Assembly (NCBI GenBank): GCA_900754285.1
Contig: CAAECB010000080.1
Location: forward strand, 1,797 to 65,796
DNA: 64,000 nt
Direction of reading: 5' to 3'
DNA from: Clostridia bacterium
GTDB taxonomy: Bacteria; Bacillota; Clostridia; TANB77; CAG-508
Shown here: one piece after another, positions 24,698 to 29,139 of the stretch
Layout of the letters: each line of letters starts with the position of its first letter
Position numbering within the stretch: position 1 is the first letter of the stretch
Position numbers and translations under genes: made by a program
Notes under the pieces: model-generated
Told to the model about the DNA's origin: nothing
What the model saw: only the letters and a program-made list of their open reading frames with translations
The model's database searches: none

Positions 24698-25178
24698 TAT
24701 TTATCACATTCCCTTCTTTTTTCTTTTGCTTTGCTAATCGCAAGTCTTTAAAAAAGTCTTTTAGTATTTGCTCACATTCTTCTTCTAACACTCCTGATTC
24801 ATATTCTACTTTGTGATTAAATGTGTAATCTTCTAGTAAATTAAAAACAGAACCTATTGCTCCTGTTTTTAAATCATGTGTTCCATAATATATTTTTTTT
24901 ATTCTTGATTGTATTATCGCTCCTGCACACATTGCACATGGCTCTAATGTTACATACATCTCACAATCTAATAATCTCCATGATTGTAATTTTTTACTTG
25001 CTTTTTGTATTGCTATTATTTCTGCATGTTTTGTTGTGTCTGTTTTACTTTCTTTTAAGTTATGCCCTCTTGCTATTATTTTTCCATCTTTTACTATTAC
25101 ACATCCTACTGGTACTTCTAGTTTTTCATATGCTTTTTTGGCTTCTTTTAACGCTTCTTTCATGAATTTTTCTTGCAT
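24687..25178 (-). CDS. tadA: tRNA-specific adenosine-34 deaminase (start taken at M10; track ORF extends to 25205)
   Basis: CDA motifs HAEIIAI and TLEPCAMCAGAI. RBS aaggaaag precedes ATG 25178. Conserved tadA-ffs-dnaX neighbourhood. Confidence 0.9.
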   Translation of the reverse strand: MQEKFMKEALKEAKKAYEKLEVPVGCVIVKDGKIIARGHNLKESKTDTTKHAEIIAIQKASKKLQSWRLLDCEMYVTLEPCAMCAGAIIQSRIKKIYYGTHDLKTGAIGSVFNLLEDYTFNHKVEYESGVLEEECEQILKDFFKDLRLAKQKKKEGNVINNEI

Positions 25179-25250
25179 TTTTTGCTTTCCTTTCCAATAG
25201 CGCATTTTATAATATTAAAATTTTTCATCTAGCCATTTTCTTACTTTTTC

Positions 25251-25263
25251 TTGGTGTTCCCAG
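25251..25263. repeat. prophage attachment site (left), TTGGTGTTCCCAG
   Basis: Identical 13-mer at 63613-63625, which overlaps the last 12 nt of tRNA-Arg. Lies between tadA and the first phage-like gene. Confidence 0.7.
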
Positions 25264-25394
25264 CCATTTTTATATAATTTATACAAATTTCTAAATGCTA
25301 GGAACAAACATATACTTAATATTTTAAACCTTTTTAAACTTTTGCAATTTTCTAATAACTCTATAAAACTTTTTCTATTGCATTAATTATTGCA

Positions 25395-25658
25395 TTACCT
25401 TATCATTTTATTTACAGTATTTATTCTGACTAAATTTACAACTTTATTAAAAGTTTTATTAAATACATTTACAATTAATTTTTCTTTCCAATTTAATTCT
25501 TCTGTTAGTTCATTTACTACTATTTCTTTTGCTTCTTTCATAAAAAATCCCTTCCTTTGCAAATTTTTATTATTTGCAATAAAGAGGTTATATTGTAGTC
25601 TTATTATACCCTTTTCTTCATTTTTTGTAAATACCTTTTTTTCTTTTTTGTTTTTCAT
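25395..25658 (-). CDS. hypothetical prophage-end (moron region) protein
   Basis: ORF track. RBS aaagagggg upstream of the ATG. Basic 87-aa protein, no family recognised. Confidence 0.45.
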   Translation of the reverse strand: MKNKKEKKVFTKNEEKGIIRLQYNLFIANNKNLQRKGFFMKEAKEIVVNELTEELNWKEKLIVNVFNKTFNKVVNLVRINTVNKMIR

Positions 25659-25755
25659 AAATAAAAACCCCTCTTTCGTAAATATAATTTGACAATTTAC
25701 TCGTAAGAGGTTATACTTAATTTACAGTTAACTCTTTTGAGTAAATTGTTTGTGG

Positions 25756-25795
25756 AAAAGAGATGTATTAGATTTGCGGTCCGTGCATCTCTTTT
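25756..25795. terminator. 10-bp-stem hairpin, terminator-like
   Basis: aaaagagatg (25756-25765) / catctctttt (25786-25795), T-rich 3' flank on the plus strand. Lies between two minus-strand moron genes. Confidence 0.45.
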
Positions 25796-25893
25796 TTCTT
25801 ATTATACCAGATTTATTTTCTATGTCAAAACCCGTTTTCGACAAAAAAAGCCTGTATGTATTGAAAATACTACAAACTTTTTTTCAGATTTTT

Positions 25894-26238
25894 TTATTGT
25901 TCCAAATTCGTTCTACTTCTAAGCTCATGCCAATTTACTCCTGATATATATTTTATGCTTTCTGATGACAATAATTTATTTTTCTTTGCATATTTATTCC
26001 ATTCCTGTATTGTTGGAAATTTTTCTTTTTTTCTTGTTATCTCTTTCAAACATTTTATAGACTCTTCATACTTTAAATATACAAAATTATCTTTTGGATA
26101 TTGCACTTCTTTTTTATAATATTCATTTAATACTTCATCAAAACGTTTACTTACTTTCTTTGTTTCTTTTGAATTTAATCCATACTTTTCTACAATTGCA
26201 TCTAGTTTATTTCTTATTCTCTTTAATCTTTCTTTCAT
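25894..26238 (-). CDS. Spo0E-like aspartyl-phosphate phosphatase domain fused to a C-terminal domain of unknown function
   Basis: N-terminus LKRIRNKLDAIVEKYGLNSKETKKVSKRFDEVLNEYY resembles the Spo0E/YnzD family helix-hairpin (..SQELDxLIxxY). RBS acggagag. Extended -10 tgatataat upstream. Confidence 0.5.
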   Translation of the reverse strand: MKERLKRIRNKLDAIVEKYGLNSKETKKVSKRFDEVLNEYYKKEVQYPKDNFVYLKYEESIKCLKEITRKKEKFPTIQEWNKYAKKNKLLSSESIKYISGVNWHELRSRTNLEQ

Positions 26239-26368
26239 CTTTTCTCTCCGTCTTTTGTTTTTTTCATATTATATCATACTATTTATATAAAGATGCGTAG
26301 TGTAAAGCTGTATTAGTAAATTTTATGTCGAAATATGTTGTAAATTATACTTTTAGTTTGAATTTTTA

Positions 26369-26397
26369 TTGACTTTTATATTTTCTTTTGATATTAT
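26369..26397 (+). promoter_or_regulatory. sigma-A-type promoter of small hydrophobic-peptide gene
   Basis: -35 TTGACT (26369-26374), 17-nt spacer, TG-extended -10 TGaTATTAT (26389-26397). Confidence 0.6.
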
Positions 26398-26410
26398 ATT
26401 TTTATCGTTT

Positions 26411-26532
26411 GGCACTCACCATGACAGCTTAGTTGTATTAAGTAGCAACTAGTTGTTATGCAAATATTAATTTAGTTGCTACTATCATGCAACTAGGGAT
26501 TAGACCTTATTTGCAATACGAGGAGGTGAGTG
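26411..26532 (+). promoter_or_regulatory. structured 5' leader that can sequester the Shine-Dalgarno sequence
   Basis: cactcacc (26413-26420) is the exact complement of ggtgagtg (26525-26532), which overlaps the SD aggaggtgag. Internal 11-12 bp hairpin agtagcaacta (26441-26451) / tagttgctact (26473-26483). Alternative partner gcaacta at 26489-26495. Confidence 0.55.
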
Positions 26533-26534
26533 AA

Positions 26535-26741
26535 TTGGAAACTCTTTTAGTGATAACAGTTATAATCTTTTCTTTAGGCTTTTTATTTGAAAAAGTCACA
26601 AACTTTTTCAAGGAAATGAAATCTGGTTCTGCCAAATTGGCTAAAGGATTCGAAGCCAGGCTATCATTTGTTCCAATCGATAGCAAAAAAAGTGAAGTAA
26701 GTGCCACTAACACAAACTCCACAAACGATAACATAGATTAG
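26535..26741 (+). CDS. small hydrophobic peptide (68 aa, N-terminal TM), type I toxin-like or holin-like
   Basis: TTG start 7 nt after AGGAGGT. (M)ETLLVITVIIFSLGFLFEKV.. then a charged/polar tail. The track ORF starts at upstream ATG 26487, which lacks an RBS. Confidence 0.55.
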   Translation: METLLVITVIIFSLGFLFEKVTNFFKEMKSGSAKLAKGFEARLSFVPIDSKKSEVSATNTNSTNDNID

Positions 26742-26754
26742 CAAACTAATCTGT

Positions 26755-26779
26755 AAGGAGCTTTGCTCCTTATTTTTTA
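26755..26779 (+). terminator. rho-independent terminator
   Basis: aaggagc-ttt-gctcctt followed by atttttta. Confidence 0.8.
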
Positions 26780-26799
26780 TTATATTCATTAATTGTATT

Positions 26800-26930
26800 T
26801 TTATCACATGTATTCCTAGAATGTCAAGTTTTTTATCTAATGTTACAAAAAAGTTAATTTTTTGTAATGAAATTGTAACATTTCTTTTTCTTCCTGTCAA
26901 TATTATAACACAAATTTTATGTAATTTCAA
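26800..26930 (-). promoter_or_regulatory. three tandem sigma-A-type promoters firing antisense into the small-peptide gene
   Basis: Minus strand: TTGAAA(26930-26925)-17-TATAAT(26907-26902) with TGt. TTGACA(26900-26895)-17-TACAAT(26877-26872). TTGACA(26828-26823)-17-GATAAA(26805-26800). Confidence 0.5.
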
Positions 26931-27118
26931 GCAAAAAATTGCCTAATTTCAGCCAATTTTTGACCTTTTAAAATCAATTTTAAGCTATTTTATTTTTTAT
27001 TTAATGTAGTTATATACCTTGGTTTTTCGGTATTTTTGATAATTTTATAGTTAATGACAAAATTCGACAACATTTTCATTTTTTATGTGATATAGTGTGA
27101 AAAAAAGGAGGTATTTAT

Positions 27119-27421
27119 ATGCGACATTTACATATTATAAGTAATGAAAATATTAAAGAATATGAAACATTATTAGAACTTTACAAAAATAAGGACTTCT
27201 CAACTGTTAGAAATGAAAAAGAAAAGGAAATTGAAGAAGATATTCTTAAAGAACTTATACAGCAAAAGCCTATAATTGGTAAACTTTTGGCAAATGACAC
27301 AACTAATTATTTATCAAGATTAAATGAAATGGATTCAACAATTGAAGGATTTCCTACTTTAATTAACACTATGCAAAATTATCTTCAAACTAATATTACT
27401 ATAATTAAAGAAGCAAAATAA
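27119..27421 (+). CDS. hypothetical moron protein
   Basis: ORF track. Strong RBS aaaggaggt 8 nt upstream. TTCGACAACATT motif at 27063-27074 in its promoter region. Confidence 0.5.
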   Translation: MRHLHIISNENIKEYETLLELYKNKDFSTVRNEKEKEIEEDILKELIQQKPIIGKLLANDTTNYLSRLNEMDSTIEGFPTLINTMQNYLQTNITIIKEAK

Positions 27422-27447
27422 AGGGACTTTTTACAGCTCCTTTTATT

Positions 27448-28842
27448 TTACATCTTTATGCAATAACTTAATGCAATCCATCCACTTGGAGTTAAACCAA
27501 ATCCATTTTGAATTTTAGTAACTGTTGTTATTACTCCTCGTTTTAATCCATTGGTATATTGACTTCCTAATTTTTTATTCTGATATCTTGCATTAGATGT
27601 TAATTGTTTATAACTCTTTATTTTATAATTTGTGCCAGGGCCTGTACGAACATTTAATACATTTGCATTAACTCTATATGTTCCTGTAGTATATTTTTGA
27701 ACTGTTTCATTTTTGGCAACATCTATATATCTAGTTGTATAAGCTAATGAAATCCATCCTAAGTTTGTTTTTCCAAAGTTGTTTGACTCTGCTAATACAG
27801 TTACTATTGAGCCTTTTGCATATCCACCAACTCTTGAGTATGATGTACTAGCTCCACTTCTTATATTCAAACCACCATTTGCCGTTACCTTAACTTGATA
27901 ATTTACTTTGTTTATATTAGATTCCACTTTATCTGTCACTATTGTTGTAGTTGTATTTTCTTTTGTGTCTGTTCTATCATTTTTGAAACAGAAAAATTTT
28001 TGATAATTTGCATACTCTCTAAAATTCTCTATTGATACATATACTGTATTACTATTTACTGTTGCTAATCCTCTACGGCTAGATACATCAAATTTTCCAT
28101 TATACAAATATGGATCATATACTTTTATATAATCTCCTTCTATTCCTACAAGAACAATGAAATGTCCTCCGTATGTAAATAAACCTTGATTACAACTTGT
28201 TATTATGTAATTATTATCTTTTAATTTTGTTACTGCATCATCTAATTTATAACATTCACTGTACCCAATATCAAATATATCAGCTGTCCACTTAAAAGCG
28301 CTCCAATATGTTCCTTGATTTGCACTTCTATAACCATATTTTGTATATAATTCTGCCATTGTGTCTGGTGTTATATTTCCTTTTATGCTAGACACTACCA
28401 TTGCTGCTGATGTTGGTCCACATCCACTTGAACCTATTGTTTGTGATTTATTTTCTATGCTAGAATACATTTTACTAGACCATCTATTATCTAATTGTGA
28501 ATAATATGTTAAACCTGCATATTCTCCTAGTTGAACATTTGGTGCTTTTTCTGAACCATTATATGCTACTATTCCTTGCTCTTCAAACCCTTCTGACTCT
28601 GTTTCTTGAACTTCTAGACTTTGCTCGTCTGTTTCTGTTAGATTTGGTATCTCTGTACTAGATTTATTTATTTCATCTACTACTGTACTTATGGCTTCTG
28701 ATATCTTATTTGTATCAACTTGTCCAGTTTCATTATATTCTAAATAAACATTTAACAATATAGATACTGATACTAATATTGCTACTATCAAGCTTATTGT
28801 TTTTGTTTTACTTTTAAATATTTCTTTTAATTTATTTTTCAA
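27448..28842 (-). CDS. endolysin: signal-anchor + C39-like papain-fold cysteine peptidase + two SH3b domains
   Basis: TM TISLIVAILVSVSILLNVYL. Catalytic-Cys context SSGCGPTSAAMVV and His context YGGHFIVLVG. Two SH3_3-like repeats (LNIRSGASTSYSRVGGY.., LNVRTGPGTNYKIK..). Confidence 0.75.
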   Translation of the reverse strand: MKNKLKEIFKSKTKTISLIVAILVSVSILLNVYLEYNETGQVDTNKISEAISTVVDEINKSSTEIPNLTETDEQSLEVQETESEGFEEQGIVAYNGSEKAPNVQLGEYAGLTYYSQLDNRWSSKMYSSIENKSQTIGSSGCGPTSAAMVVSSIKGNITPDTMAELYTKYGYRSANQGTYWSAFKWTADIFDIGYSECYKLDDAVTKLKDNNYIITSCNQGLFTYGGHFIVLVGIEGDYIKVYDPYLYNGKFDVSSRRGLATVNSNTVYVSIENFREYANYQKFFCFKNDRTDTKENTTTTIVTDKVESNINKVNYQVKVTANGGLNIRSGASTSYSRVGGYAKGSIVTVLAESNNFGKTNLGWISLAYTTRYIDVAKNETVQKYTTGTYRVNANVLNVRTGPGTNYKIKSYKQLTSNARYQNKKLGSQYTNGLKRGVITTVTKIQNGFGLTPSGWIALSYCIKM

Positions 28843-28854
28843 TTTTCTCCCCTC

Positions 28855-29139
28855 CTAATCAATTATTTCAAATTCTTTTACTTTTTCCATTAATGCTTCT
28901 ATAAACGAATTACCTCGCAATTTAAAATATATTTCTGCACTATGCTGTATGCTTTCTAATTCATAATGTGTTATCTTTTTATCTTCTTTACATCTATCAT
29001 ATATAGTCAATATGTCATTTCTTAAGCTACACTTTGTTGCTTCTATCATTGACATGCAAAAGCTAAACATTCCGATCGAAAATGTTCCCAGAAATGTAAT
29101 TAGAAACCAATAATCTTTTAAAAATTCTAATACTTGCAC
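28855..29139 (-). CDS. putative holin (single TM)
   Basis: 94 aa. TM WFLITFLGTFSIGMFSFCMSMI. Sits immediately upstream of the endolysin. Confidence 0.4.
   Translation of the reverse strand: MQVLEFLKDYWFLITFLGTFSIGMFSFCMSMIEATKCSLRNDILTIYDRCKEDKKITHYELESIQHSAEIYFKLRGNSFIEALMEKVKEFEIID

Follow-up and report, generated by a model that had tools for sequence, protein, structure and literature searches.

Is the short locus at positions 26369-26930 of a gut Clostridia genome a type I toxin-antitoxin system, or does its antisense RNA control a harmless membrane protein? The locus lies within a 64,000-nt stretch of DNA (hereafter the window) that represents contig C80 of a 94-contig, 1.6-Mb metagenome-assembled genome (MAG). 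An initial annotation had described a type I toxin-antitoxin-like cassette in which the gene of a small membrane peptide, with a leader that hides its Shine-Dalgarno (SD) sequence, is faced by three antisense promoters. Each element that it named was confirmed at its coordinates. The comparative evidence presented here supports this 3'-overlapping antisense layout. We read the cassette as a self-contained, horizontally mobile sense/antisense module of the type I toxin-antitoxin kind, and on the basis of sequence comparison we give this reading a probability of roughly 0.6. Its two transcription units are very probably real and functionally coupled, and a genuine type I toxin-antitoxin pair, in which the peptide would be toxic, is plausible and somewhat favoured. 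The peptide/RNA pair is best read as in effect a new family within the type I toxin-antitoxin-like modules.

The peptide gene and its leader

The peptide gene (26535-26741, plus strand) encodes 68 amino acids from a TTG start codon with the SD sequence AGGAGG 8 nt upstream. We found 33 homologues at 60-95% identity, nearly all of 68-73 aa, and a profile search of 1.84 billion protein cluster representatives returned only 23 members, nearly all of 65-76 aa. The cluster representative P0002, a peptide with a different C-terminus, was considered as an assembly chimera; this was rejected, and P0002 is probably a real variant since a k141 contig carries the identical junction. At the level of the whole locus, 26 distinct versions were collected from same-genus MAGs, GTDB MAGs, IMG/VR contigs and metagenomes. 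Among 14 distinct family members without indels, differences at codon positions 1, 2 and 3 number 1267, 604 and 2076, and the median ratio of nonsynonymous to synonymous substitution rates (dN/dS) is 0.18. The dominance of third-position changes together with the low dN/dS identifies the plus-strand open reading frame (ORF) as a real gene under purifying selection. The SD sequence and the start codon (TTG, ATG or GTG) are kept across relatives; an in-frame ATG further upstream (26487) is not conserved and is buried in a leader hairpin.

As the initial annotation had proposed, the peptide begins with a membrane helix. AlphaFold, supplied with the family alignment, predicts a helix over residues 2-45, with a predicted local distance difference test score (pLDDT) above 90 for residues 1-20 and a confident model for about the first 25; the helix continues amphipathically beyond the membrane segment and is followed by a disordered, low-confidence polar tail. 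The hydrophobic stretch covers approximately residues 3-19, and the peptide thus qualifies as a small hydrophobic transmembrane protein, though its 68 aa are slightly above the usual <60 (PMC6563280). The C-terminal 20 residues are of polar character (S, T, N) with an acidic end, and the tail is wholly different between subfamilies (VSATNTNSTNDNID vs DVHKHPHN). Neither the peptide nor its family has a match in Pfam, NCBIfam, PHROGs or PADLOC (E <= 0.05) or in a PDB profile search. No similarity to TxpA/BsrG, BsrE/BsrH, YonT, Fst/Ldr or the Clostridioides difficile toxins was found at the level of library models, the C. difficile sequences being without direct comparison, and blastn of 26250-27450 against the phage collection gave no match.

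The near-consensus sense promoter is present at 26369-26397 (plus strand), with TTGACT-17-TATTAT and a TG extension (10/12). A TTGAC(A/T) + TG-n-TATAnT promoter occupies the equivalent site in all distinct related loci. Promoter-like sites scoring at least 9/12 are common in this AT-rich DNA (19 found vs 15.6 expected). Under a first-order Markov model, the region 26301-27000 holds four sites of at least 10/12 where 0.67 are expected (P = 0.0065) and two of at least 11/12 where 0.046 are expected (P = 0.0015), and its sites of at least 10/12 keep their positions across the related loci.

The gene is preceded by a structured 5' leader of ~131 nt (26404-26534, plus strand), in which a helix between the 5' end and the SD region encloses a long central hairpin (26428-26497). 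In the minimum-energy fold the anti-SD segment CACUCACC (26413-26420) pairs with GGUGAGUG (26525-26532) across the SD sequence, which bears out the complementarity noted initially. The fold of the 157 nt at 26404-26560 reaches -45.5 kcal/mol (z = -4.04), and none of 200 shuffles is as good. In an alignment of 15 leaders, 96% of cells are paired, compared with 30-50% when the partners are slid by 1-3 columns; twelve pairs have changed on both sides, and 0/500 shuffles reach the observed covariation. Seven of the pairs with double changes belong to the upper hairpin, and the 5'-end/SD helix shows compensatory changes at three positions (CG 9, UA 5 and AU 1; CG 9 and UA 5; UA 10 and CG 3).

At least eight distinct complementary anti-SD/SD pairs occur among the relatives. 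Where the window has CACUCACC opposite GGUGAGUG, L004 has UCCACC opposite GGUGGA, L005 has AUUCAUCAC opposite GUGAUGGAU, and L052, L054 and L055 pair GUACUCACUCC with GGAGUGAGUAC, GCAUCUACC with GGUGGAUGC and AACACCACC with GGUGGUGUU, respectively; loci of the L023 type pair CUCCUUC with GAAGGAG. The same closing helix appears in the minimum-energy structure of all eight divergent leaders folded singly, the unrelated L023-type sequences included. The mRNA structure thus hides the SD sequence, as is typical of type I systems, in a helix maintained by compensatory change.

The leader also holds the heptamer GCAACUA twice, and the central hairpin has two alternative pairings: GCAACUAAG has one possible partner 5' of it, CUUAGUUG, and another 3' of it, CUUAUUUGC. 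Since neither partner varies, the alternative pairing, although real, lies beyond covariation testing. The further suggestion that the mRNA is inert until processed found nothing in its support. When the whole mRNA was folded without the 5' anti-SD, the SD was not freed, its unpaired probability falling from 0.29 to 0.075, with the proviso that long-range fold predictions are unreliable. Since the SD stayed closed, we make no claim for activation through 5' processing.

Convergent terminators and the antisense RNA

Each strand of the cassette has its own intrinsic terminator. The peptide mRNA ends at 26753-26783 (plus strand), where a 9-bp stem (26753-26773) precedes a T-run, in agreement with the clean terminator described initially; in 14/14 variants this structure is stabler on the plus strand (-11 to -16.5 kcal/mol) than on the minus strand (-5.2 to -11.5 kcal/mol). 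The antisense terminator (26722-26685, minus strand), an addition to the initial annotation, lies within the 3' end of the ORF itself, inside codons 51-63, and consists of the hairpin GUGGAGU...ACUUCAC (26722 to 26692) followed by U7 (26691 to 26685). Its hairpin reaches -10 to -15.7 kcal/mol on the minus strand vs -3.6 to -12.7 on the plus strand in 14/14 variants, the minus-strand G.U pairs being A.C mismatches in the plus-strand form. L023-type loci use another sequence (GUGGGGAUGU..ACAUCUUCAC + U7), with a 10-11-bp stem and the same minus-strand preference, and the in-ORF terminator motif is present in all 26 distinct loci. It escaped a simple terminator scan limited to loops of 3-8 nt, a size that its apical part exceeds.

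Three minus-strand promoters point toward the 3' end of the peptide gene, as originally reported, all with 17-nt spacers and at positions conserved in the relatives. The proximal promoter P3 (26807-26779; GTGATA-17-TATAAT, 10/12) has a predicted start at ~26772 and would give an RNA of ~87 nt. The distal promoters P2 (26900-26872; TTGACA-17-TACAAT, 11/12) and P1 (26930-26902; TTGAAA-17-TATAAT, 11/12), which abut each other, would give RNAs of ~180 and ~210 nt. Both distal promoters are nearer to consensus than the sense promoter. Of the 26 loci, 23 have a proximal promoter of at least 10/12, with a -10 box that ends 22-45 nt beyond the stop codon, and 25 have one or more distal promoters of at least 10/12, placed 93-199 nt beyond it; spacers are 17-18 nt, mostly 17. 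The proximal promoter takes the form TTGACA/T-17 in the L005, L023, L025, L034, L035, L036 and L056 types. All window-type loci have P2 and the majority also P1, and L023-type loci have one distal promoter. An 88-aa minus-strand ORF was rejected as a gene, its start falling in the P1 -35 box.

The predicted antisense RNA has full complementarity to the final 57 nt of the ORF, counting the stop codon, and to the 3' untranslated region and the terminator, and at the sequence level the cassette thus contains a cis-antisense gene with a predicted overlap of 87-96 nt with the peptide mRNA. The short form (82 nt folded) makes three hairpins at -28.4 kcal/mol (z = -4.44), the middle one being a 7-bp hairpin, AGAUUAG/CUAAUCU (26735-26752), that spans the stop codon; the long form has z = -3.04 and a 5'-terminal hairpin. 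In window-type loci the three stems, that of the stop codon included, are invariant and all three loops are variable. A cmscan search of 25000-28000 against Rfam with E up to 10 gave nothing meaningful over 26369-26930, only spurious miRNA-type matches at the hairpin.

Within the ORF, codons 19-50 show a third-position variability of 0.39 per site but codons 51-68 one of 0.16, and this synonymous-site constraint coincides exactly with the sense/antisense RNA overlap. The invariant protein motif KKSE is the U-tract and the first stem bases read in the opposite direction.

Additional repeats were observed upstream of the antisense promoters. In L023, L025, L036, L056, L034 and L005, three to four direct TGTAAY repeats with an 11-nt period (for example TGTAATATTTT TGTAATACAAA TGTAATATTAT TGTAATTGACT) lead from ~10-60 nt upstream into the -35 box of the proximal antisense promoter. 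In window-type loci the matching region has TGTTACA/TGTAACA copies in inverted orientation, together with a perfect 10-bp palindrome (26843-26867). These elements look like regulator binding sites.

A mobile unit in a prophage

The locus had been placed at the prophage end. It does lie close to the left attachment site (attL), at ~1.1 kb, but inside the prophage, between attL and the lysis genes. The attL core is the 13-mer TTGGTGTTCCCAG (25251-25263), a copy of the 3' end of tRNA-Arg(CCT) that marks the left prophage boundary 46 nt from the tadA start. A second copy (63613-63625) covers the 3' end of the tRNA-Arg(CCT) gene itself (63614-63689, minus strand), which adjoins the integrase (62351-63526). 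In 8/13 same-genus genomes examined, tRNA-Arg(CCT) is found near tadA, on the side of its start and within the fetched locus (+/-1.5 kb); in L068 the distance is ~45 nt. Judged by sequence, this arrangement is the empty integration site, and because of it we take the 38.4 kb at 25251-63625 to be the inserted prophage. The closest public records are human-gut MAGs titled 'uncultured Clostridium sp.'. The lysis genes, on the far side of the cassette from attL, comprise a C39-like/SH3 lysin (27448-28842) together with a holin-like ORF (28855-29139). A 14-mer (TTTCTATTGCATTA) is shared by 25372-25385, ~110 nt inside attL, and 63540-63553, ~60 nt inside the right attachment site, and is partly repeated at 25388; it may be an integrase arm site.

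The phage genome itself carries the cassette, since the circular-looking, 38,210-nt metagenome contig ULMM01005135.1 (L044/L057) has the integrase, Spo0E-like, peptide and lysin genes in circular order, with ends that overlap by 31 nt within the peptide gene. The break point of this contig is exactly the 31-nt stretch common to both kinds of cassette. Such a stretch is a repeat node for assemblers with k = 31, and assemblies of these phages therefore tend to split in the peptide gene.

The surroundings of the cassette vary. In the window it is adjoined on the left by a Spo0E-like gene (25894-26238, minus strand) with its own promoter (9/12). This neighbour is restricted to the closest relatives and L004/L022, and most relatives lack it; elsewhere its place is taken by a gene of the XRE type with a helix-turn-helix (HTH) domain, by an integrase or by terminase genes. 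In L021 the flanks are chromosomal and non-phage, with an ABC transporter and a membrane protein on the left and a LysR gene on the right. The cassette stands between the attachment site or integrase and the lysis genes in many phages, and between packaging and other genes in L023-type phages. Comparison of these contexts indicates that it moves as one unit and brings its four signals along.

A partial copy was found elsewhere in the same genome. Contig C22 (L002, G000:C22:2692-5741, 1501-2050) holds a 50-nt stretch, 92% identical, of the antisense terminator and the 3' end of the peptide gene. This stretch was considered as an attachment site and rejected: the prophage ends are the 13-nt tRNA-Arg repeat, and the 50 nt are instead the antisense terminator common to a decayed second cassette copy. 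No peptide gene precedes the C22 copy, which is fused to tandem mini-modules, each with a 22-aa hydrophobic ORF (MNDLIKLLKLLLIYLIVKHLSN) behind a strong SD sequence, a bidirectional-looking terminator and a facing TTGACA-17-TAATAT promoter. L061, a k141 contig from other metagenomes, has an intact peptide gene whose end has the alternative sequence (..TNFTYDYKLHDFCNC), and there the antisense promoter of the mini-module type feeds the same terminator. Since L061 joins an intact peptide gene to the alternative end, the C22 copy looks like a decayed variant cassette.

Candidate Spo0A boxes accompany the cassette. In the window an exact TGTCGAA lies at 26326-26332 (plus strand), 37 nt upstream of the sense -35 box, where Spo0A, which is encoded in the genome, may bind. 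The exact 7-mer is present at the equivalent upstream site in 16/24 loci (the window and 23 others), often doubled 10 nt apart; counted from the start codon, it lies at about -181 to -218 nt (-283/-293 in L034). Only eight exact TGTCGAA/TTCGACA boxes occur in the whole window. Five of these are in prophage accessory regions (25837, 26326, 27063, 38695 and 38705), three of them within 1.3 kb around the cassette.

A second sense/antisense pair (25689-25843) was observed 0.7 kb to the left of the cassette. Its minus-strand promoter (25828-25801) scores 12/12, has an exact Spo0A box just upstream (25837-25843) and drives an 87-aa basic ORF (25658-25395) through a ~135-nt leader. An 11/12 promoter on the plus strand (25689-25717) would produce an RNA of ~85 nt (25724-25805) that folds into two hairpins followed by a U-tail (-25.1 kcal/mol, z = -4.04) and is antisense to that leader along its whole length. 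Rfam ctRNA_pND324 matches here at 40.2 bits, under the gathering score of 45.

Known type I systems and competing explanations

The closest layouts appear to be bsrG/SR4, txpA/RatA and yonT/SR6 of Bacillus subtilis. In the prophage type I systems of that species, 3'-overlapping antitoxins of 100-222 nt face toxin mRNAs of 255-294 nt, the mRNA decays in an RNase III-dependent manner, and the ribosome-binding site is sequestered in 4-5 GC pairs (PMC6562991, PMC3834814, PMC5848175, PMC3531473). Like bsrG/SR4 of SPbeta (PMC3834814, PMC6562991), the cassette is prophage-borne and its genes converge. SR4, an antitoxin RNA of ~180 nt, matches the 3' end of the structured bsrG mRNA (~294 nt), and the like is predicted for the cassette. 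In both, the SD sequence lies in a double-stranded region, the antitoxin promoter is the stronger one (for bsrG/SR4, PMC3834814) and the antitoxin has several length forms, which for the cassette are predicted. Unlike the cassette peptide, BsrG has 38 aa and is unrelated in sequence. The bsrG SD is held in a local 4-bp stem, whereas in the cassette an 8-11-bp helix with the extreme 5' end holds it; the antisense RNA of the cassette is also predicted to end inside the ORF and would start from three separate promoters.

The toxins of txpA/RatA (skin element) and yonT/SR6 (SPbeta) are closest in size, with 58-59 aa and an N-terminal membrane helix (PMC3531473, PMC5848175, PMC6562991), and these systems likewise reside on prophage-like elements and have 3'-overlapping antitoxins of 100-222 nt. 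Their silencing runs through RNase III, a step that we propose for the cassette by analogy. They differ from it in peptide sequence (no NCBIfam/Pfam match) and in an over-long SD complementarity, where the cassette has a 5'-end anti-SD instead. Among clostridia, CD0977.1-RCd11 and CD0956.2-RCd10 of C. difficile resemble the cassette in host group, prophage location and convergent overlapping genes (PMC6563280, PMC7699646, PMC5961336). The prophage systems of C. difficile produce short and long antitoxin forms from tandem promoters (PMC6563280), like the forms predicted here, and a role in mobile-element maintenance has been proposed for them. Their toxins differ in having 34-59 aa, Lys-rich tails and an unrelated sequence, the last judged without direct sequence comparison. 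Some C. difficile antitoxins carry riboswitches for cyclic di-GMP; no Rfam family was found at the cassette.

Together these features suggest a mechanism. The sigma-A-type promoter would produce an mRNA of ~378 nt (~26404-26781) whose 5' end pairs with the SD region, so that the 68-aa membrane peptide would be intrinsically poorly translated. From the minus strand, the proximal and two distal promoters would supply an RNA of ~87, 180 or 210 nt ending in the ORF at the U-tract 26691-26685. By analogy with the B. subtilis prophage systems, the 87-96-bp duplex would trigger RNase III-dependent decay of the peptide mRNA, and an RNase III gene is present in the genome; antisense pairing may also reinforce SD occlusion, as in bsrG/SR4. 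The peptide would be kept off while the prophage is present. Should the antisense RNA be lost or outpaced, the peptide would insert in the membrane and presumably harm the cell.

Several properties of the peptide weigh against a toxin. At 68 aa it is longer than the 28-60 aa usual in Firmicutes, it lacks a Lys-rich C-terminal tail (8 K/R and 8 D/E in all, net neutral), and no curated type I toxin model matches it. Its central motif KSGSAKLxKGFEAxLS is well conserved outside the RNA overlap, unlike in a textbook toxin, and part of the remaining protein conservation is RNA conservation because the in-ORF antisense terminator fixes the KKSE codons. A strong, possibly Spo0A-linked sense promoter and the frequent lysis or Spo0E-like neighbours would also fit a regulated accessory membrane protein without toxicity. 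The same architecture could then serve a prophage accessory peptide whose expression level and timing are set by the antisense RNA and the closed leader, with a role, for example, in superinfection exclusion, lysis timing, or modulation of sensor kinases or sporulation signalling. We regard this as a serious though less likely explanation. The size and missing basic tail speak for it, as do the position in the lysogenic-conversion region beside lysis genes, in some phages also beside a Spo0E-like gene, and the exact Spo0A boxes upstream of the sense promoter in most loci, together with the presence of Spo0A in the genome; the protein-level conservation of the central motif suggests a specific partner over generic membrane damage. 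It accounts less well for a unit that moves into unrelated contexts, one of them flanked by non-phage genes, and decays as a remnant, both being typical of addiction-type modules, or for repression at three levels, by the closed SD, by non-ATG starts in many members and by several strong antisense promoters, of the sort typical for harmful products.

Two further explanations dispense with the sense/antisense pairing. The initial annotation had itself allowed that the minus-strand promoters might be ordinary promoters of the Spo0E-like gene, reading across the peptide gene as one long mRNA, and the weak promoter of that gene (9/12) and the failure of the simple scan to find a strong minus-strand terminator would suit this. 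A conserved, minus-strand-specific hairpin with U7 intervenes, however, inside the peptide ORF and 450 nt upstream of the Spo0E-like gene, and the promoter layout persists in loci that have, on the left, a gene for an HTH protein, a terminase, an integrase or a chromosomal membrane protein, in some cases on the opposite strand. With the cassette travelling as a unit and the antisense terminator in between, this explanation is very unlikely. We give even less credence to the possibility that the real gene is a 75-codon minus-strand open frame (26734-26507) with the plus-strand ORF as its shadow. That frame is open over 71-75 codons in many relatives and begins with a hydrophobic stretch, yet it stays open because the peptide has no Tyr and few Gln or His. 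It has neither an SD sequence nor a conserved start codon (no ATG there in L004) and starts inside the antisense terminator, whereas the plus-strand SD and start codon are conserved everywhere and substitutions at the plus-frame third position outnumber those at the second by 2076 to 604. The type I-like module with a putatively toxic peptide remains our preferred reading.

A variation concerns the Spo0A boxes. Three accessory units at the prophage end have exact boxes, namely orf87 with its countertranscript-like small RNA, the peptide cassette and the region upstream of orf100, and the Spo0E-like phosphatase gene lies between the orf87 unit and the cassette. The cassette could accordingly belong to a prophage programme tied to the host Spo0A phosphorelay rather than being a plain addiction module, an idea that we consider improbable. 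If true, the membrane peptide would be freed from antisense control at sporulation entry and would modulate a membrane sensor kinase, or kill or lyse sporulating cells, giving the phage control over host cell fate.

Searches for type I toxin-antitoxin systems are difficult, as peptide and RNA alike lack conservation between families, and nearly all of those characterised in Clostridia come from C. difficile. The locus described here would define another family, carried by uncultured Clostridia of the human gut and by their temperate phages, with unusually complete comparative support for a case read from DNA alone: a covarying SD-occluding leader, two strand-specific convergent terminators and synonymous-site constraint over the overlap. 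It also provides a clear case of an antisense terminator embedded in a coding sequence, where the needs of the RNA fix the short protein motif KKSE. Should the peptide be toxic, a possible use of the cassette would be as a counter-selection marker or stabilising module in poorly tractable gut anaerobes.

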